Of a stretch of 32,000 nucleotides of DNA, positions 21,585-32,000 are shown piece after piece. The notes beneath the pieces were generated by a model, which was not told the DNA's origin, did no database searches, and was given only the letters and a program-made list of their open reading frames with translations. Origin of the DNA: Candidatus Hermodarchaeota archaeon (GTDB taxonomy: Archaea > Asgardarchaeota > Heimdallarchaeia > Hodarchaeales > Hodarchaeaceae); contig JBHLKY010000020.1 in NCBI GenBank assembly GCA_048886185.1, positions 49,550 through 81,549 of the forward strand. The letters run 5' to 3'. A program made the position numbers and the translations under genes. The first letter of the stretch is position 1. Each line of letters starts with the position of its first letter.

Positions 21585-22541
21585 CTAAGAATACGTAGAA
21601 TTCTGATAAACACGTATATAGTCAACAATCATTGTTTGAGGGAAAACAGAGTCGTCGATACCATAAAGACCACCCCAAGTACCACCAACAGCAATATTTA
21701 AAATCCAGTAAAAATTTTGGTCGAATGGCCAGGTGTAAGCGGATGCATTCACCTCTTTTTGAAATGTAAAATACTTTATATCATCCACAAAAAAATCAAT
21801 ACGATTGGGAAACCATTCAATGGCATAGATGTGGAATTGTTCCTCACATGTAGCCATAAAAACAGACCCCCCTTGTTGAGTACCCTTCAGATGATTATAA
21901 GCATCACAATGAATCGTTCCATGAATAAGCCCAGGTTGATATCCCACATATTCCATTATATCTATCTCCCCACTTTCGGGCCAGCCACCATAAACACTAC
22001 TTTGGGGCATCATCCAGATAGCAGGCCAGAGTCCTCGGCCATGTGGCAATATTGCACGAGCCTCAAATCTACCATATGTCCAATAAGCCTTTGATTGGGT
22101 ATTTATCCGTGCGGAAGTATATTTAATACCTATTTTATCACTCAATACCGCTTTTATTATCAAGGTTCCATCTTCTACATAGGAATTATTTAGATCCTTT
22201 ACATACTCCTGTTCTTCTTCATTTACCCATCCAGGTCCACGCCATTCAAAATTCCATTTGGATTCATTGGGAAAACCAGAATAATTAAACTCATCAGACC
22301 AATTTAACTGCTCCCAAAGATAAGAAGAATATTGCACCTCAAGGAAAGATGGTTCAGGTTCCTCATCGATTGGGTTGGGTTCCTCAGTTTCTTCAGGTTC
22401 CTCATTCGTTTGTTCATTTGTTGTATTGTTAGAATCAGGGGTTATAGATGGAGTATTTAGGTTAAAAAGAGCTAGAAATGTGACTCCAATTAATAAAAGA
22501 GACATTGAACCTCCAATCATTAATATTCTGCGATAAGACAT
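21585..22541 (-). CDS. glycoside hydrolase family 16 (laminarinase-type beta-1,3-glucanase), N-terminally membrane anchored
   Basis: N-terminal TM helix, E/P/N-rich linker, WSDEF, YTSARI, GLWPAIWM and the catalytic WPESGEIDIME motif. Confidence 0.92.
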   Translation of the reverse strand: MSYRRILMIGGSMSLLLIGVTFLALFNLNTPSITPDSNNTTNEQTNEEPEETEEPNPIDEEPEPSFLEVQYSSYLWEQLNWSDEFNYSGFPNESKWNFEWRGPGWVNEEEQEYVKDLNNSYVEDGTLIIKAVLSDKIGIKYTSARINTQSKAYWTYGRFEARAILPHGRGLWPAIWMMPQSSVYGGWPESGEIDIMEYVGYQPGLIHGTIHCDAYNHLKGTQQGGSVFMATCEEQFHIYAIEWFPNRIDFFVDDIKYFTFQKEVNASAYTWPFDQNFYWILNIAVGGTWGGLYGIDDSVFPQTMIVDYIRVYQNSTYS

Positions 22542-22610
22542 AATTTCACTGTATCTTGAGGATATTATTAAATTTTTCTGTTAGATCACAAAGGAGGAAG
22601 TTGTAAGCCA

Positions 22611-23609
22611 TTATAGTATCGAATTGGTGCGAATAAATTCAATAAGATCATCTACCTGAGTATATGCTATACAGGTCACTGTATCTGCCGCCCCATAATA
22701 GATAGCTATACGTCCTGTTGTTGCATCCGCTAATGCAGCGCATGGAAAAACAACATTAGGTACATCACCAACACATTCATACAATCTTTGAGGGGAAAGA
22801 ATATAAGGCCCCGTTCGATATTTTACATTCCAAGGTTGAGTAATATCAAGTATAGCAGCTCCCATGCTGTAAACAAAGCCATTACATGATGTTATTACAC
22901 CATGATATATCATAAGCCAGCCCTCAGTTGTTTCAATTGGAGTAGGACCAGCTCCAATCTTTGTTGATTGCCAACCAAAATTAGTGGCCATAACCTGACG
23001 ATGATGACCCCAATGAATCATATCAGGGCTTTCACTGTAGAAAATGTCTCCCCACGGTGTGTGTCCTCTATCACTTGGACGACTCAACATTGCATATTTT
23101 CCATTGATTTTTCGCGGAAAAAGAACACCATTCCGATTATATGGTAAAAAAGCATTTTCTAGTTGGTGAAATTCCTCAAAATTATGAGTATATGCCATAC
23201 CAATAGTTGGCCCATAATACCAATTACACCAAGTCACATAGAAGCGATCTTCTAACCAACATACCCTAGGATCATATCCATAAACAAATGTAGCGATATC
23301 AGGATTTTCACATTTAAAAGAAATTGGATCATAATCGATATCCCAATTTATGCCATCCACACTTCTTCCTTGATGGAGTCGCATATTTCTATATTTATCG
23401 TCACACCTAAAAATCCCAGCAAAGTTGCCATTAAACGAAACAACAGCACTATTAAATATACTGTTAGATGAAGGTATTAAATCTCTCGGAATAATAGGAT
23501 TTCGTTCTGATCGCCAAACCACATCTTTGTAATCTCTTGGTTTTTCTTCCCAAGGTATATTTGGTAAATCTTCACCAAGGATCGTTTTTCCAGATACCTC
23601 TTTTCCCAT
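22611..23609 (-). CDS. glycoside hydrolase family 130 beta-mannoside phosphorylase (GH130_2-like)
   Basis: [51 protein letters not shown] and GDVPNVVFP motifs. Confidence 0.93.
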
Positions 23610-23699
23610 TTTAGTTACACCATTCTCATTTCTTCATTGTTTTGGTAGTTAAATTGGTTGTTCCTTTTTTAAAAATTGAAATAAATGGATTTCAGAATT

Positions 23700-24683
23700 T
23701 TAACCTTTTTGGCCCGTTTTTATCCTAGGATCAAGAAATCCATATGTTATATCTACTAAGAAATTACCGATAATTGCGATCACTAAAATCACAATGGTAA
23801 TACCCATTATTAGGGGGTAGTCTCTATTAAATAGGGACTCCATATAAAGTGTACCAATCCCTGGCCACAGAAAAACATATTCTACTATTAATGTTTCACT
23901 AATAAGTTCATTAAATCGTAAATTCAACAAAGTAAATTGAGGTAATATTGCATTTCTTTGGGAATATTGTCTTAGTATTTTAGGCCTGAATCCCATATGC
24001 TTTGCATAGTAAATATAAGACGTCTCCATTTCATAAAGAATCATCGCACGCATCCCCACAGCCCAAAATCCCGCGTTAACAATTATTAATGTTAAGAATG
24101 GGGCCATGTAGTGTCGAAAGAGGTCAATAAAATAGTCAATATTGAAGCCAGGAGACATTTGGGGACTAATTCCACCAGGATGAGAAAGAAAGATATTATT
24201 GCCAGTAACGAAGTAAATGAATATAATGAGGCCCAGCCAATAAAACGGTGCAGATCGTAAACAGAGGAAAAACATATACACAGCATCATTGATTCTACCT
24301 TTTAGATATGCTGCTTTAGCCCCAATCCAATTGCCAATGTAAAAACTAATGAACAAGACTGGTATCACAAGAACTAATGAAAAAACAAGACGAGGAAGCA
24401 TTACATCCACAACTGTCATGGGATAATAGTTAAAAGATGGTCCCAAATCCATTTTAAGTAAATTCTCCCAAAAAATTAGATATTGTTCTTCTAATGGTTT
24501 ATCTAGGTTAAAAAAATAAACAATCCAAATATTTCTGTCTCCTTCGGACATGAATCTTGGGATAAAAAAAGCAAATGTAAGGGCAATGAATAATGCTAAT
24601 GAATAAAAACCTGCTTTTTTTAATACAAATCTGTTATAAGAGCTGTTTAAAATTTGTTTTAGTTTTATACTAAGTTTAAGCAT
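23700..24683 (-). CDS. ABC transporter permease, DppB/OppB type (oligopeptide/oligosaccharide family)
   Basis: LDKPLEEQY...DLGPS, PFYWLGL, EAA-like loop (SYIYYAKHMG...RNAILP), IVEYVFLWPGIG and NRDYPLIMG. Confidence 0.9.
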   Translation of the reverse strand: MLKLSIKLKQILNSSYNRFVLKKAGFYSLALFIALTFAFFIPRFMSEGDRNIWIVYFFNLDKPLEEQYLIFWENLLKMDLGPSFNYYPMTVVDVMLPRLVFSLVLVIPVLFISFYIGNWIGAKAAYLKGRINDAVYMFFLCLRSAPFYWLGLIIFIYFVTGNNIFLSHPGGISPQMSPGFNIDYFIDLFRHYMAPFLTLIIVNAGFWAVGMRAMILYEMETSYIYYAKHMGFRPKILRQYSQRNAILPQFTLLNLRFNELISETLIVEYVFLWPGIGTLYMESLFNRDYPLIMGITIVILVIAIIGNFLVDITYGFLDPRIKTGQKG

Positions 24684-24916
24684 TATCTACGTCTCTATTA
24701 TTTCTTTAATAAATGCTAATTCCATTAATTTGTTGAATTTTGTTAAATTAGATAAGATACTTATAATTATTCTGGAAAAAAAATCATCCTATTACTTATG
24801 ACTTATCTCAACTTCTCTTATTGTTTCCACAATTAATCAATGAAAATTTTTTAGGATATTTTAAATCTCTCGTGATCCTACTTGAAATTTAAAATTAGTC
24901 AGGAAGTATTTAATGT

Positions 24917-25372
24917 ATGTCAAGTATATTAGAAAATCAGATTATTGTACAAATCGGGATAATTGTAAAAGACATTGAAAAAACCTCATTAATGTATTCT
25001 AAACTTTTGGGCGCTAAAAAACCTCAATGGTTTTGGACTGAACCTTTTAACAAAGCGAAGACAGAATATAAAGGAAATCCAACACAAGCCAGAGCAAAAT
25101 TAGCCTTCATAAAATTAGAAAACATAGAAATCGAACTCATTGAACCAGATGAAAATCCTAGTACATGGAGAGAGTATTTAGTCACAAGAGGGGAGGGGAT
25201 TCACCATATAGCATTCATTATAAATGGAATGAAACACAAAATTTCTAATCTAACTGAAATTGGTATCCCCTTAATCCAAAAAGGGGAATATTCAGGAGGC
25301 CGCTATGCCTATTTTGATTCTCTAAAAGACTTGAAAGTGATTATTGAACTACTTGAACATAATAATGTTTAA
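24917..25372 (+). CDS. VOC / glyoxalase family protein (methylmalonyl-CoA epimerase-like)
   Basis: QIGIIVKDIE, IELIEP, GEGIHHIAF and IIELLE. Confidence 0.88.
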   Translation: MSSILENQIIVQIGIIVKDIEKTSLMYSKLLGAKKPQWFWTEPFNKAKTEYKGNPTQARAKLAFIKLENIEIELIEPDENPSTWREYLVTRGEGIHHIAFIINGMKHKISNLTEIGIPLIQKGEYSGGRYAYFDSLKDLKVIIELLEHNNV

Positions 25373-26037
25373 GTAAAGTTGTTCAACATCCTATTTAAAC
25401 ACCATTTGATTGCATTAACTATCATTTTTTGAAAAACATCAGTTTTAACTTGAACTTCTCCATGGCCCAACGCTGTGTAAAAGACATATCCAAGACCGTA
25501 TGGTTTTATCCATGAAATAGGACGTGAAAATCCCTTATAATCACATACAATGAGAGTTTTGATAGGAGGATAGATTTCCATTAAATATAATTCATCCTTT
25601 AAAGAAAAATCTGATATACCTTGCATAATAGGGTGATTAGGCTTAATCACCTTGAATTCATACTCTTCTCCTAATGGAGGATGTGTCAAAAATTTGCCTC
25701 CAAGCATTCGTAGATACTCTTGAGAATTTTGAAAAGAGCAAGAAGCGCCATGAACTCCAATAAATGTCTTAGGTTCTCCAGTTTCTCCCCAAGGGGAGCC
25801 AATTATGGCATTTAAAAGACCCTTTTCCTGTTCTGCGTTTAATTCTCTTCCTGTTGTGCAACAAACAATAACTTTATACTTTTTGATATTATTAGATAAG
25901 AAAAAGTCTAGATCCTGAGTTAGTGTTACCTTAAAGCTAGCTTCTTCTAAGAAATCTTTGAAAATGGATCCCATTATAGAAAAATCATGGAATTTTGTTT
26001 CTAAGCCTCCTACAACTAAAATGTCAATACTACTCAA
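25369..26037 (-). CDS. ThuA-like domain protein (class I glutamine amidotransferase-like fold)
   Basis: FHDF, FIGVHGAS, GGKFLTHP, HPIMQG, DELY, YGLGYVFYTALGH. TTG start with GAGG SD. Confidence 0.85.
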   Translation of the reverse strand: MSSIDILVVGGLETKFHDFSIMGSIFKDFLEEASFKVTLTQDLDFFLSNNIKKYKVIVCCTTGRELNAEQEKGLLNAIIGSPWGETGEPKTFIGVHGASCSFQNSQEYLRMLGGKFLTHPPLGEEYEFKVIKPNHPIMQGISDFSLKDELYLMEIYPPIKTLIVCDYKGFSRPISWIKPYGLGYVFYTALGHGEVQVKTDVFQKMIVNAIKWCLNRMLNNFT

Positions 26038-26147
26038 AATTTTTCGCCTCTTATCTAACCTAATTAAGATTCAATAAAACATTATGGTTATTATTATCCT
26101 TAATCTTTATGATGGATTTCATTTAGGACTGTTCACGATAAATCAAG

Positions 26148-26891
26148 TCAAAGATATTTTTGAAGCCAATTGATGCTTTCTTCAATAAATTCCTCTAATT
26201 GATCATTATTGAACATATGGTCGGCATTTTCAACCAAGAGGAGCTTATGGTCAATGTTCGAAGGAAAATGACCTTCAGCCTTTTTGGATAATTCTGGTTT
26301 AACAGTTTTATCTAACTTTCCATGAATAATTAATGATGGATATTTAAATTTTCGAAGATATTTCTCAGTATCGATTTCTTTTAATTCATGAACGAAATCT
26401 TCCTCAATGTATATTTCTGGGGGAGAAGCAGAGAGTAATTTAAATGGAAAGTGATTATAAAGTGAATTATTAGTAATATTTTCCAAATAAAATGCAGGGG
26501 CCCAAAAGATAGCTGTTCGTACTGGAAGATTTGCAATGAGAGCGGTTAAGCCCCCAAAACTCAATCCAATTATGCCAAAATCAACATAATCTAATTTTTT
26601 AAGCCAATCATAAACATCTACTAAATCCTGAACCTGCTGGGATAATAATACAGGTTCTCTTTTATTTTCTCCAGAACCAGAAAAGTCAAAGATTATGGCA
26701 TCAAATCCCTTTTCATTTAGCCTTTTTGCAGTTTTAGGAAATCGTCCCCATTCATATTTGTCACCTGTAAAGCCATGACATAAAATTACTAATGGGGATT
26801 TTTTCTTGGTATTTGTTGATGTCTCAAATAATATCGAAATTAACTCTCCCCCATTTCTTTTCGGAACTTTTATTTTTCTTTGTAGTATTAT
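26148..26891 (-). CDS. alpha/beta hydrolase (about 247 aa), non-canonical ATA start
   Basis: The frame is open from TAG 26909-26907 to the stop ending at 26148. It encodes LVILCHGFTG, FDFSGSGE, GLSFG (Ser), HGKLD (Asp) and ADH (His). No ATG/GTG/TTG lies before the nucleophile elbow, so the ORF-track call at 26564 is truncated. Confidence 0.82.
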   Translation of the reverse strand: MILQRKIKVPKRNGGELISILFETSTNTKKKSPLVILCHGFTGDKYEWGRFPKTAKRLNEKGFDAIIFDFSGSGENKREPVLLSQQVQDLVDVYDWLKKLDYVDFGIIGLSFGGLTALIANLPVRTAIFWAPAFYLENITNNSLYNHFPFKLLSASPPEIYIEEDFVHELKEIDTEKYLRKFKYPSLIIHGKLDKTVKPELSKKAEGHFPSNIDHKLLLVENADHMFNNDQLEEFIEESINWLQKYL

Positions 26892-27078: not shown

Positions 27079-30000
27079 ATGGATGTCACGATAAGGTTGA
27101 TGAATAATCAAACCTTTATAATTTCAAAATATGTTTTTCCCGAATTTAATGAAGAAGTTAAAAAAGAAATAAACATAAGACAACTTGCAATAAAAATCTT
27201 CAATATAGTTAACATTTTTGGTCCTAAAGCCCTCGTTCTTGAATGTGAGGATAAAACTCTTCAATCATATCTCATAAATTCTTTGAGTTTATATCTTCAG
27301 GATAATTTCACATTTGAAAAATTAGGTGGGGGGATTCAGATTTTGACTTCTCTTCCTTTTCATAGTGAAGAACCAATTTCTTTAACTTCCAAGATAAAAA
27401 AGTTAGGTCAGTTTGAAAATCAAATAGGGCTGGGTATTGAAATTCAGGGAAAAACGATTAACGGAGTATGCATTGATGGCAATGGAAACATCATTAAACG
27501 ATCAAAAAGAAGTATAAAAAAAGAAGAAGGCTATAGATCAGTCATTAATAGTATTATCGACTTAATCAAAGAACTATTGGAATCTTTGAATCCAGAGAAA
27601 ATTAAAAGCGTGGGGATTGGCATTCCTGGTGGAATCAGCCCTATAGTTGTCAGAAGAATGATAGCTATGGGAGATTTTCATGATATTAATCTCAAAGGTG
27701 AAATAGAAGCAGCTATTGGCCACCCTACATTTATTGAAAATGATGCCAACGTCATTGCTTTAGGAGAAAAAGAAATTTCAAGAATTGAAGGAGATTTTTT
27801 CACTCTCACTCTCGGAGAGAGTGTTGGTGGAGGTATCATAATTAATGATCGAGTAATTCATGGAGAAAACTATTTTGCAGGAGAATTGGGACATATAATA
27901 GTCGATGACGCTATTGATGCACCTGTTTGTGGTTGTGGGAATACTGGCTGCCTTGAAGCTAGAATGTCAACCATTTCTGATCTTAATGAGGAGAATTTGG
28001 ATGAGATTGCTAAAGATGTTGCCAAAGCGATTAGAATCATCGTTGATCTAACAAATATTAACCAAGTGCTTATTGGGAGTAGCGTCACAAAATTTGGGTA
28101 TAATTTTTATGAAGCCGTACGTCATAATTTAGAAACCCAGTTTATCCCAAAAACAACCCCTGTTCAAGTCTATGAATCATCATTAGAGAGATTTCCTGAA
28201 ACTGAACGCAAATTCATTGGAGCGATTGGTGCTGCTATTATGGGGATGCAAAAAGTAGGAGAAATATCTGAAAAAGTTGTAGTAGTTATCAAAAAAGACG
28301 ATCAAGAAATGGGAAAAGCAGCTGCAAGAATAATTTCTGAACAGATCAGGAGAAAACCAAATACAGTGTTGGGATTAGCAACTGGGAGTACTCCTATCAG
28401 TATGTATAAAGAATTAGTTCGAATGCACAATGAAGAAAATCTAGACTTTTCAAAGGTTACAACTTTCAATCTTGATGAATATTATCCCATAGAAAGAGTA
28501 AACAATCAAAGTTATTACAGCTTCATGCATTATTGGCTGTTCGACCAAATCAATATCAATCTAGAAAATGTTCATATCCCCGATGGAGAATGGTCAGAGA
28601 AAGATCTAGAATCTAACTGTGAGCAGTTTGAACAGCTAATCAAGAAAGCAGGAGGAATTGATATTCAGATCTTAGGGATTGGTGAGAGTTTTTTCACAGA
28701 GAAGAGAGAAATTCATGGAGGGCATATTGGATTTAACGAATCTGGCTCTGATTTCTCCTCTCGGACTAGGAAGGTGATTTTAGCAGAAAAAACTCGTGTA
28801 GATAATTCACGATTTTTTCAAAGTATTGAGGAAGTTCCCCGATATGCAATTACTATAGGAATAGGTACAATTTTAGATGCAAAAAGAATAATACTGCTAG
28901 CTTCTGGAGAGCATAAAGCCCTTATAATCAAGGAAGCTGTCGAAGGTAAAATTACTCCTTTTATACCCGCAACGGTATTACAAACTCATGCAAACACAAC
29001 CTTTCTAATAGAAGAGGGAGCAGCATCGAAATTAAGTCGAATGTCTTATCCATGGTTATTTTTCGATATGGATTGGATGAAAGAAACTGATAAAAAGAAA
29101 ACAGATGAAGTTAAAATTGATGAAGCGTTGATTTGGCTCTCATTGACCACAAAGAAACCATTGACCCAACTTGATTTACAAGATTTTCACAATAATTTCC
29201 TTTCAGATCTCCTGCAACTTTTTAACTACAATGTTCCTAGTTTGACTAGCAAGGTGATTGCAAGGATTAATAATAAGATACGTTTTAAAGAAAAACTACC
29301 AAGGCATAAAAAGATATTGGTCGTTTCTTGTCGCCCTGGTGATGATGGTGTTATTGCTGATACCGTTAGAGCTTTGGTTAGTAACGAAAACAAGTTAAAA
29401 ATAATAAATATGGTAAGTGGTAACATTAATGTGAAAAATTCTGATGTTATTGATTACTGTGAAGAGAATCTTTTCGAAGAATCAATTAAAGAAAGTGTTC
29501 TAAAAAATCGTATCGATGTATTCGAATTATTGAAGTTAAAAACTCTTGTTAGGAAATCTGAATCAATTGATATGCATAAATATCTAGGAATCTCTTCTGA
29601 AAATCAATTTTTCTTGAATTTACCTTTCTATGAAACAAGAACTATCGAAAAAATCATTGAAATCTCCGATATAGATATTATACCACTGGTTACAATTCTA
29701 GACCAAGAACAACCAGAGATTATTTTAATTCTTGGAGGAATCACTGATCCACATGGACTCAAAGCAAGAATAGTAGAAATCTTTGAATTAGCATTAAAAA
29801 GGTCTGGAATTCAAAAAACTGAACTCTGGTACTATAAGACAACTATGGAGGAATTCTCTGTTGCAAGAGGAGATATTATCGTTCCATTCACTGAAAAAGA
29901 CATGGATCTTAAAGTAATTGCCATTCAAAGATTAAAGAGTCAACAAGTTGTCGATTTTCTAGCAATTCCTGGATATGATCCACGACCGCTTTGGGAACGT

Positions 30001-30117
30001 ATTAAAGAACGAAATCGAGCTATTGGTTACATCCTTAAGACAACGGGTTTAGTTCCTGACGAATATAATTATGGATCAATTTACCAAGTTTCTCAGTACA
30101 TTAAAGACACGAGATAG
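27079..30117 (+). CDS. nagB: fusion protein: ROK domain + glucosamine-6-phosphate deaminase (NagB) + degenerate PIG-L/LmbE-like domain
   Basis: ROK (aa ~116-392): GIGIPG, ENDAN, GGGIIIN, GELGH, CGCGNTGCLE. NagB (aa ~400-653): LGLATGSTP, FNLDEY, GHIGFNE. PIG-L-like (aa ~744-1000): SGNI, LNLPFYET, DPHG. Confidence 0.88.
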   Translation: MDVTIRLMNNQTFIISKYVFPEFNEEVKKEINIRQLAIKIFNIVNIFGPKALVLECEDKTLQSYLINSLSLYLQDNFTFEKLGGGIQILTSLPFHSEEPISLTSKIKKLGQFENQIGLGIEIQGKTINGVCIDGNGNIIKRSKRSIKKEEGYRSVINSIIDLIKELLESLNPEKIKSVGIGIPGGISPIVVRRMIAMGDFHDINLKGEIEAAIGHPTFIENDANVIALGEKEISRIEGDFFTLTLGESVGGGIIINDRVIHGENYFAGELGHIIVDDAIDAPVCGCGNTGCLEARMSTISDLNEENLDEIAKDVAKAIRIIVDLTNINQVLIGSSVTKFGYNFYEAVRHNLETQFIPKTTPVQVYESSLERFPETERKFIGAIGAAIMGMQKVGEISEKVVVVIKKDDQEMGKAAARIISEQIRRKPNTVLGLATGSTPISMYKELVRMHNEENLDFSKVTTFNLDEYYPIERVNNQSYYSFMHYWLFDQININLENVHIPDGEWSEKDLESNCEQFEQLIKKAGGIDIQILGIGESFFTEKREIHGGHIGFNESGSDFSSRTRKVILAEKTRVDNSRFFQSIEEVPRYAITIGIGTILDAKRIILLASGEHKALIIKEAVEGKITPFIPATVLQTHANTTFLIEEGAASKLSRMSYPWLFFDMDWMKETDKKKTDEVKIDEALIWLSLTTKKPLTQLDLQDFHNNFLSDLLQLFNYNVPSLTSKVIARINNKIRFKEKLPRHKKILVVSCRPGDDGVIADTVRALVSNENKLKIINMVSGNINVKNSDVIDYCEENLFEESIKESVLKNRIDVFELLKLKTLVRKSESIDMHKYLGISSENQFFLNLPFYETRTIEKIIEISDIDIIPLVTILDQEQPEIILILGGITDPHGLKARIVEIFELALKRSGIQKTELWYYKTTMEEFSVARGDIIVPFTEKDMDLKVIAIQRLKSQQVVDFLAIPGYDPRPLWERIKERNRAIGYILKTTGLVPDEYNYGSIYQVSQYIKDTR

Positions 30118-30141: not shown

Positions 30142-32000
30142 ATGACAAGCAAAATTTCTTTGAATAAAGAATGGAAAATGCAATCTTCTGACAAGTTATC
30201 AAAGCATGGTGAAATAATTTCTACAACGGAATTCATCCCAGAAAATTGGTATACTGTCGATGTACCGACAACTGTGGTAAATGGTCTTGCCGTTAACGGT
30301 GAATTTGATTTTAAAAACCCTTATTATGGATTAAATCTAAAATCCATACCTGGTCTTAAAGGAGATATAAAAAGACAGAATTATGAGAGTCGATATAAAC
30401 CTGAAGATAGCCCATTCAGAAAACCATGGTGGTTCAGAAAGGAGTTTATAATAGATGAGGATCATCATAAGAAAGAAACTTGGATAGCTTTTGATGGTAT
30501 TAATTATTCTGCAAACATCTGGTTAAATGGTAGACGGATTGCCGGTTCTGACTATGTTATAGGAACGTATCGGCGATATGACTTTAATGTCACACATTTT
30601 GTGAATCCAGGCATAAATATTCTTGCATTAGAAGTGTTTTCTCCAAATCCTGACGATCTGGGGATTAGTTTTGTTGATTGGAACCCTATGCCTCCTGATG
30701 ATAACATGGGAATTTGGCAACCAGTGTACTTATATTCAACAGGTCCTGTGGCAATAAAATTTCCTTTTGTGAAAAGTAAATTAAACATTGAATCATTAGA
30801 AGAAGCTGAATTAATAATTACTGCAGAATTTCATAATACACAATCAGAATGTGTCAATGCTATTGTGGAAGGAAAAATAGAAAAGGTCAGTTTCCAAAAA
30901 GAAATTTTTCTTGACTCTAAAGAGAAGAAAAACGTTATCTTCTCATCTGAGGAGTTTCCACAACTGATGATAAAAAATCCACGAATATGGTGGCCCTATC
31001 AACTTGGATCTCCTGAATTATATAAACTGGATCTTAAAATTCGTGTTAATGACAAAATCTCTGATAGGCATGAAATTACTTTTGGGATAAGAGAAATTAG
31101 TTCTTATATAAATGAATATTCTTCAAGTAAACTCACTATAAAAAGTCGTATAATCTCAAAGTCAAACCAGAAGGTCGGATCCCGTGTTTTCACAATTAAT
31201 GGTCATGATATTCTACTCCGAGGCGCTGGTTGGACCTGTGATATGATGCTTGCTCAATCTAATGAACAAGATGAAATTGATGTTGCTTTTCTTAAGAATC
31301 TTAACATGAACGTGGTACGTTTTGAGGGGAAACTCGCAACTGACAATTTTTGGGATGTTTGTGATAGGGAAGGCATACTCATTCATGCTGGATGGGTTTG
31401 TTGTAGTCATTGGGAAAAATGGAACCAGTGGAAAACAGGTGATATCGAAGTTGCAGAAGCATCGTTACGCTCTCAAATTCTTCGTTTACGTAACCATCCA
31501 AGTTTTTTAGCTTGGTTTTATGGAAGTGATTTCCCCCCACCGGAGCATGTTGAGAAAGTATATCTCAATGTGTTAGAAAAAACTTATAATGAGCTTTCAA
31601 AGATTTCTAGTGCCACTGCTTATCCAACAAAGTTGACAGGGGAAACTGGTGTGAAAATGACTGGCCCATATACCTATGTTCCCCCTTCTTACTGGTATAC
31701 TGATGGAAGAGTAGGAGCTGCAGATAAATTTAATACTGAAACAGGACCAGATGTATGTATTCCTCCTTATGAAAGCTTAAGAATAATGCTTCCTGAATCC
31801 CAACTTAAAATTGGAAGTGAGGGGTGGAATTATCATACAGGACTAGGTGCTTTTGCTGACACAAAACTTATAGAAGAAGTTATTACAAAACGATATGGTA
31901 AACCTGTTTGTCTTGAGGATTTCTCAAAAACAGCACAAATTCTAGGTTATGAATGCTGGAGAGCAATGTATGAAGCGCATTTAAGAAATTACCCTAAATC
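30142..32000 (+). CDS. glycoside hydrolase family 2, exo-beta-D-glucosaminidase (CsxA-like), 3' partial
   Basis: Open frame of 619 codons from ATG 30142 (GGAG SD at 30128-30131) to the window end, absent from the ORF track. Motifs DWNPMPPDDNMGIW, RFEGK, GWVCCSHWE, RLRNHPS..WFYGSD (Asp463 acid), GPYTYVPPSYW and FNTETG (Glu533 nucleophile). Confidence 0.9.
   Translation, partial: MTSKISLNKEWKMQSSDKLSKHGEIISTTEFIPENWYTVDVPTTVVNGLAVNGEFDFKNPYYGLNLKSIPGLKGDIKRQNYESRYKPEDSPFRKPWWFRKEFIIDEDHHKKETWIAFDGINYSANIWLNGRRIAGSDYVIGTYRRYDFNVTHFVNPGINILALEVFSPNPDDLGISFVDWNPMPPDDNMGIWQPVYLYSTGPVAIKFPFVKSKLNIESLEEAELIITAEFHNTQSECVNAIVEGKIEKVSFQKEIFLDSKEKKNVIFSSEEFPQLMIKNPRIWWPYQLGSPELYKLDLKIRVNDKISDRHEITFGIREISSYINEYSSSKLTIKSRIISKSNQKVGSRVFTINGHDILLRGAGWTCDMMLAQSNEQDEIDVAFLKNLNMNVVRFEGKLATDNFWDVCDREGILIHAGWVCCSHWEKWNQWKTGDIEVAEASLRSQILRLRNHPSFLAWFYGSDFPPPEHVEKVYLNVLEKTYNELSKISSATAYPTKLTGETGVKMTGPYTYVPPSYWYTDGRVGAADKFNTETGPDVCIPPYESLRIMLPESQLKIGSEGWNYHTGLGAFADTKLIEEVITKRYGKPVCLEDFSKTAQILGYECWRAMYEAHLRNYPK

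Follow-up and report, generated by a model that had tools for sequence, protein, structure and literature searches.

The LmbE family is defined by the motif HXD1D2+H, in which both histidines and D2 serve as metal ligands and D1 acts as general base (PMC4101496). Domains of this family are found fused to glucosamine-6-phosphate deaminase (NagB) in the family NF002557/PRK02122, named nagB-PIGL in PMC13198582. A literature search found no biochemical study of these NagB-PIG-L proteins. The enzyme normally feeding NagB is NagA, the N-acetylglucosamine-6-phosphate (GlcNAc-6P) deacetylase. The present analysis concerns a fusion gene of this type, encoding 1012 amino acids (aa), in a stretch of 32,000 nucleotides (the window; G000:C20:49550-81549) from contig JBHLKY010000020.1 of a Candidatus Hermodarchaeota archaeon, whose genome (G000) amounts to 4.84 Mb and is 96% complete. 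The C-terminal 270 residues of the protein have a true LmbE/PIG-L fold and are probably no longer a metal-dependent deacetylase. According to the reading favored here, the deacetylation step has moved to separate genes, and the domain is kept as part of the only NagB of the cell.

A first-pass annotation of the window had described the domain as catalytically dead, with CRPGDD in place of HPDD and PHGLK in place of HxxH. Both readings proved exact in letters and coordinates. The first motif (29329-29346; TGT CGC CCT GGT GAT GAT) encodes C751-R-P-G-D-D756, and the second, from 29749, encodes P891-H-G-L-K895. Alignments with NagB-PIG-L proteins of bacteria, Dictyostelium and other Asgard archaea place SPHPDDDVISxGG opposite SCRPGDDGV-IAD, which also has a one-residue deletion, and DPHGTH opposite DPHGLK. 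The proposed comparison with the diacetylchitobiose deacetylase Dac gave the same register, as the domain profile aligns the HPDD columns with those of the Pyrococcus enzymes (E 1e-5). Within HXD1D2+H, the first His is thus represented by R752, D1 by G754 and the distal His by K895, and only D2 (D755) survives. With the motif now consisting of R752-P-G754-D755 and K895, the domain has lost its general base and two of its three metal ligands.

The motif loss is real. The survey of relatives comprised 185 sequences, namely 33 homologues, the window's own sequences and, from a library of 1.84 billion proteins, the 150 best representatives. All five catalytic columns are canonical in 118 of them, and the remaining ones are mostly fragments or variants at the first His of HxxH, which is not a ligand. 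The RGD+K signature occurs, besides the window's own, in 13 sequences from different assemblies (55-99% identical) and in no other of the 185; P0070 has RPGD elsewhere in its sequence and is canonical at the motif columns. Among the non-Asgard relatives (~90), conservation at the three replaced columns amounts to 0.99 (H), 0.98 (D) and 0.95 (H). Columns this close to invariant, together with a signature common to different assemblies, argue against both chance and assembly error as the origin of the loss.

The intact motifs SPHPDDDVISxGG, DPHGTH and xHxSQ are carried by the bacterial and Dictyostelium proteins as well as by the Asgard sequences P0016, P0017 (genome G127) and that of genome G128. 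The window's protein and its close relatives read S-(C/A/T/V)-R-P-G-D-(D/N) followed by the one-residue deletion, D-P-(H/Y)-G-(L/V)-K, and R-L-x-S-Q, so that HxSQ is now LxSQ. Further family-conserved columns are altered in the same clade (P751, V757, G760, Y777N, A784N, T894, G921T, A922T, W923M, H952L). Retained are S750, P753, D755, D756, G781, K821, R825, E828, the FLNLPFYET block, D866, D890, P891, S954, Q955, and the PG.D.R..W.R...RN tail, as well as H892, which is Tyr in two members (P0005 and genome G059). With Pfam PF02585, the domain scores 15.9 bits, below the gathering cut-off of 28.2, and it is not among the matches of a genome-wide PF02585 search at E<=1.

The fold was examined with an AlphaFold2 model of residues 654-1012 based on a 66-row alignment (predicted local distance difference test, pLDDT, 92.8; predicted template modeling score, pTM, 0.91). 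Foldseek searches with this model retrieved Dac, BC1534, BshB, TT1542 and MshB at E 6e-8 to 1e-5 with a probability of 1.00. The VIA-align Z scores were 21.3 for BshB (6p2t; root-mean-square deviation 2.7 over 207 residues), 21.2 for Dac (3we7), 20.8 for 2ixd, 19.1 for 1uan, and 17.2 for 1q74, and unrelated folds reached Z <=8.3. As modeled, the Rossmann-like alpha/beta LmbE fold is intact. Packed on it is a helical subdomain, residues 654-743. This linker has four helices in the model, with high pLDDT, and its conservation extends from bacteria to Asgard archaea (W686, L698). A phmmer search of the PDB with the domain sequence alone gave no meaningful match; the LmbE structures were reached by profile and fold searches only.

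In a maximum-likelihood tree of 106 domains, the 12 degenerate sequences included form one clade (Shimodaira-Hasegawa-like approximate likelihood ratio test, SH-aLRT, 100) belonging to one Hodarchaeales sub-lineage. Because they are monophyletic, the motif was lost once. Their clade lies within a larger Asgard clade (99) that also includes the intact P0016/P0017 and the sequence of genome G138; P0038, P0039 and G128/P0037 branch below. The G138 sequence (L059:3-899, G138:C493) is an intermediate form, with HPDDD intact, DPHGTQ instead of DPHGTH, and a CsxA-type gene of glycoside hydrolase family 2 (GH2) directly after it. The nearest homologues come from metagenome-assembled genomes (MAGs) named Hodarchaeales, Hodarchaeota, Heimdallarchaeota or Promethearchaeota. 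The domain is present in 6 of 83 genomes of the class, all belonging to one genus.

Selection on the protein was estimated from pairwise ratios of nonsynonymous to synonymous substitution rates (dN/dS) among G000, G058 and G065. Values of 0.12-0.19 were obtained for the LmbE-like domain, 0.05-0.09 for NagB, 0.07-0.10 for ROK, and 0.05-0.07 for the linker. The constraint on the LmbE-like domain is therefore about two-fold weaker than that on NagB, and at 0.12-0.19 the domain is being maintained, not decaying. A homologous fold, the loss of essential residues and selection, the features of a pseudoenzyme, are all found in this domain, and the loss of activity is a prediction from the sequence. 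The earlier suggestion of a pseudo-enzyme kept as a module agrees with these results, the LmbE fold being kept and two metal ligands and the base being replaced under selection. It is very probable that the fused domain no longer deacetylates.

The question then arises which enzyme performs the step. All genomes compared are MAGs. In the genus of the window, NagA scores over the cut-off in 4 of 22 genomes (G000, G058, G059, G065), all with a degenerate fusion. The NagA gene of G000 (C20:86375-87505; TIGR00221 334 bits, cut-off 225.65) lies about 7 kb downstream of the fusion and is followed by a SIS_2 gene. No NagA was found at E<=1e-20 in the two Helarchaeota MAGs with fully intact motifs (G127 and G128, each 94% complete), nor in G138, in which HPDDD is kept and the third ligand is Gln (85% complete). 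Outside the Asgard archaea, 15 genomes with NagB fused to an intact PIG-L domain were searched (L072-L086, L126), including Gemmatimonadota, Eisenbacteria, a Planctomycetaceae bacterium, Nitrososphaerales, Abditibacterium, Opitutaceae, Alphaproteobacteria and Bdellovibrionota. NagA was over the cut-off in one of them, and one more had a weaker match. As a rough control, a NagA-like gene was present at E<=1e-30 in three of five Asgard genomes with a stand-alone NagB, the other two being 61% and 72% complete, and NagA was found in 8 of 14 reference genomes. Only the pattern of an intact domain and no NagA is replicated across phyla.

As genomes with an intact domain are nearly always without NagA, we infer, with moderate confidence, that the intact domain of the NagB-PIG-L family replaces NagA. 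Ancestrally, it would most likely have deacetylated ahead of NagB. At the base of one Hodarchaeales sub-lineage, the first His became Arg752, the Asp acting as base became Gly754 and the distal His became Lys895, with several other active-site columns changing alongside. In the window's lineage, the step would be carried out by the downstream NagA and by a stand-alone Dac-like PIG-L enzyme encoded elsewhere in the genome. The Dac-like gene (279 aa; G000:C13:80644-81480, L001:1480-2319; E 2e-29 to Pyrococcus Dac) has HPDD and HPDH and is one of four stand-alone PIG-L genes in G000 with intact HPDD and HxDH motifs. Every fusion-bearing genome of the genus (six) has it, as do four further ones (10 of 22), and it was not found in G138 (85% complete). 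NagA and the Dac-like enzyme would, again with moderate confidence, make the fused activity redundant in this lineage, so that the fused domain could lose catalysis. Deacetylation has thus most likely been outsourced rather than become unnecessary.

Several points weigh against this reading. The degenerate fusion of G056, which belongs to a deeper sub-clade, comes without NagA in an assembly that is 70% complete and has N gaps. The motif loss may hence predate NagA, or NagA may not be its cause. The count of one NagA in 15 was obtained from non-Asgard MAGs without a completeness estimate. One of the 14 control genomes, probably Bacteroides thetaiotaomicron, is over the NF002557 cut-off and has NagA as well, so that NagA can occur together with an intact fusion. 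A recent bacterial import of NagA was considered and found no support, since its nearest relatives are archaeal; for the same reason, the arrival of NagA cannot be dated by such an event. As the degenerate sequences descend from one event, links to NagA, Dac or GH2 are not statistically testable within the Asgard archaea. The loss of activity, finally, is deduced from the residues.

A different cause had been suggested in the first-pass annotation, namely that the next gene belongs to a family yielding glucosamine (GlcN) and that no deacetylation would be needed. The domain would then have died because the adjacent GH2 enzyme delivers GlcN, which could pass through the ROK kinase to NagB without a deacetylase. 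We consider this rather unlikely. The nature of the neighbor was confirmed: it is a CsxA-type exo-glucosaminidase, its VRFEG, GSDF and FNTET aligning to E394, D469 and E541 of CsxA, with the catalytic residues kept. It adjoins the fusion in 5 of 5 degenerate-clade genomes checked and was not found in G127 and G128, the two Helarchaeota genomes whose fusions are fully intact. However, the same gene adjoins the fusion in G138, where HPDDD is kept, and with a single loss event the association gives no co-occurrence statistic; the causal link to the motif loss is not supported. Moreover, past GH2 the locus of the window goes on with GH94, a phosphosugar mutase and a canonical NagA, and the gene order in the sister species G059 is fusion, GH2, GH94, a PGM-family mutase, and NagA on the opposite strand. 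The known chitobiose phosphorolysis route proceeds by the successive action of a phosphorylase, a GlcNAc-1P mutase and NagA. The GH94-mutase-NagA layout resembles this route by analogy, and such a route would need deacetylation because it passes through GlcNAc-6P. Likewise, in the chitin catabolism of Thermococcales, the exo-glucosaminidase acts downstream of the PIG-L deacetylase, on its product and not in its place. The proposed kinase step is also uncertain, as the ATP motifs of ROK are altered. The claim that deacetylation could be dispensed with is at odds with the NagA gene set in the locus, the retention of NagA and the Dac-like gene in degenerate-clade genomes, G138, and the known archaeal route.

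Two further explanations concern the domain itself. It could still be an enzyme, being metal-independent or having a new metal site or a new substrate, with D755, D756 and H892 working together with R752, K895, N777 and N784. The strong purifying selection would agree with this, as would the new residues being invariant in the clade and D755, D756, R825, E828 and Y851 being kept. Nevertheless, Gly now stands at the position of the general base, P0005 and G059 have Tyr in place of H892, and every characterized LmbE enzyme uses HXD1D2+H (PMC4101496), which makes a remodeled active site improbable. That the domain is a functionless remnant heading for deletion is the least credible of these explanations, and we regard it as very improbable. 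The dN/dS is about twice that of NagB, as would be expected of a remnant, but it is still 0.12-0.19. In addition, no assembly-complete member has a frameshift or truncation, identity between species is ~80%, and the fold is confidently predicted.

If the step has been outsourced as favored above, the domain would be kept as a rigid part of the cell's only NagB protein. Its present role, the weakest step of the argument, is most likely in fold or oligomer assembly, although this is uncertain. In favor of such a structural role, the linker is conserved, the model is rigid, and the sole NagB depends on the same polypeptide. A sugar-binding regulatory site seems less likely; there would be room for one because R825, E828, Y851, D890 and H892 are retained, some of which bind substrate by homology. 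The positively charged Arg and Lys, which replace two His beside the surviving Asp pair, may fill the place of the metal.

The ROK module might have undergone a similar change. Its sugar and Zn motifs are retained (ENDAN, 27736-27750; GH..CxCGxxGC, 27889-27957). The phosphate-1 loop is atypical, with EIQGKT instead of DxGGT (GIEIQGKT, 27433-27456). The phosphate-2 motif GTGVGGG has become GES/NVGGG (LGESVGGG in the window, 27811-27834), a change specific to the clade without the PIG-L motif. As the ATP motifs of ROK are also altered, the protein may have just one active module. It is conceivable, though doubtful, that a once trifunctional kinase-deaminase-deacetylase is now an active NagB flanked by two pseudoenzyme modules, ROK and LmbE, acting as sugar sensors. 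If so, these modules might bind GlcNAc or GlcNAc-6P and switch the deaminase on, a built-in allosteric control. Classical NagB is hexameric and has an allosteric site for GlcNAc-6P; control by sensor modules would differ from it.

The features of the locus are listed in the table below. On the 1012-aa protein, Pfam finds ROK (residues 118-297) and Glucosamine_iso. NCBIfam NF002557 ("glucosamine-6-phosphate deaminase-like protein") matches residues 395-991 with 474.5 bits (cut-off 384), and the match, at profile positions 24-638 of 653, extends over NagB as well as LmbE. The NagB part scores 275.6 bits with the NagB equivalog TIGR00502 (cut-off 236.9) and is the sole NagB match in a genome-wide search of G000. 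ROK is also the sole one in the genome at E<=1e-10. A 10-residue insert, SFFTEKREIH, precedes the catalytic GHIGFNE block of NagB (28684-28740); it is found in all Asgard triple fusions and not in bacterial and Dictyostelium homologues. The N-terminal part aligns as conserved across all Asgard triple fusions, and an Atlas search with it (116 aa) yielded weak leads only (0.85).

Table. Position of the fusion gene, its modules and motifs, and the downstream GH2 gene in the window (ORF, open reading frame)
Feature	Position	Strand	Basis
Fusion gene, 1012 aa: N-terminal part, ROK, NagB, linker, LmbE/PIG-L-like domain	27079..30117	+	single ORF, Pfam/NCBIfam
N-terminal part, ~115 aa, matching no family	27079..27423	+	no Pfam/NCBIfam match
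ROK module	27430..28278	+	PF00480 122 bits; alignment to human ManNAc kinase and a glucokinase; clade comparison
NagB (glucosamine-6-phosphate deaminase) module	28282..29049	+	TIGR00502
Helical linker subdomain between NagB and LmbE fold	29050..29307	+	model, conservation, dN/dS
LmbE/PIG-L-fold domain without catalytic motif (predicted pseudo-deacetylase)	29308..30114	+	model, structure alignment
Motif 1, S-C-R752-P-G754-D755-D756, replacing S-P-H-P-D-D-D	29326..29346	+	
Motif 2, D-P-H892-G-L-K895, replacing D-P-H-G-T-H; third metal ligand His to Lys	29746..29763	+	
K-T-T-M-E-E-F, replacing R-G-A-W-x-E-W	29836..29856	+	
R-L952-K-S-Q, replacing family x-H-x-S-Q	29929..29943	+	
CsxA-type GH2 exo-beta-D-glucosaminidase gene	30142..32000, cut by window end	+	E 1.2e-102 to 2vzs

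Upstream of the fusion, at 21585-26564 of the window, lie genes for GH16, GH130, an ATP-binding cassette (ABC) permease, a glyoxalase-fold protein, ThuA, and an alpha/beta hydrolase. This block is conserved: the same genes are found beside the fusion in G058 and G065, except that a GH16 match is missing from the stretch of G065. Downstream, a single 1412-aa GH2-GH94 fusion was discarded as an artefact of a scaffold gap: the GH2 gene is interrupted by 100 N (L014:1952-2050, just past position 32000), and GH2 and GH94 are separate genes in G059. An apparent truncation of the fusion in G056 is likewise an N gap and no real truncation. Next to the intact Helarchaeota fusions, a GHMP galactokinase-like kinase gene was observed (G127, L054:7534-8643; G128, L055:11739-12806), which hints at a sugar-1-kinase route for amino sugars in these archaea.

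If correct, the reading favored here provides a datable case in which one domain of a multi-domain metabolic protein in Asgard archaea changed from an enzyme into a non-catalytic module. There are consequences, too, for the widespread and uncharacterized NagB-PIG-L proteins, whose intact LmbE domain may be the GlcNAc(-6P) deacetylase missing where NagA is absent. For annotation, reconstructions of amino-sugar or chitin pathways in Hodarchaeales should not treat the protein of the degenerate clade as a deacetylase.

Compared with the NagB-PIG-L fusions of NF002557/PRK02122, the window's protein has the same order of NagB, helical linker and LmbE and shares linker and scaffold motifs (VRKSE, FLNLPFYET, SQ, PG.D.R.W.R...RN). 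In contrast to them, it adds the N-terminal part and ROK, and HXDD+H is replaced. The Dac enzymes of Pyrococcus and Thermococcus (3we7, 3wl4, 8bgo) are the best profile matches of the domain (E 1e-5) and joint best structural matches (Z ~21), and they share its amino-sugar context with an adjoining exo-glucosaminidase. Dac is, however, a stand-alone enzyme with His-Asp-His ligands and an Asp base, whereas the window's domain is fused to NagB and lacks the first His, the base and the third His. A further comparison is with the intact Asgard ROK-NagB-PIG-L proteins of Helarchaeota MAGs (P0016, and P0017 of G127), a sister group with the same architecture and 51-52% identity over this region. Unlike the window's protein, they keep SPHPDDD, DPHGTH, AHKSQ and the LGTGVGGG of ROK, and G127 has neither NagA nor the CsxA-type GH2. 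NagA itself has an amidohydrolase fold unrelated to the LmbE domain, and in the window's lineage it appears to have taken over what was probably the ancestral task of the fused domain.

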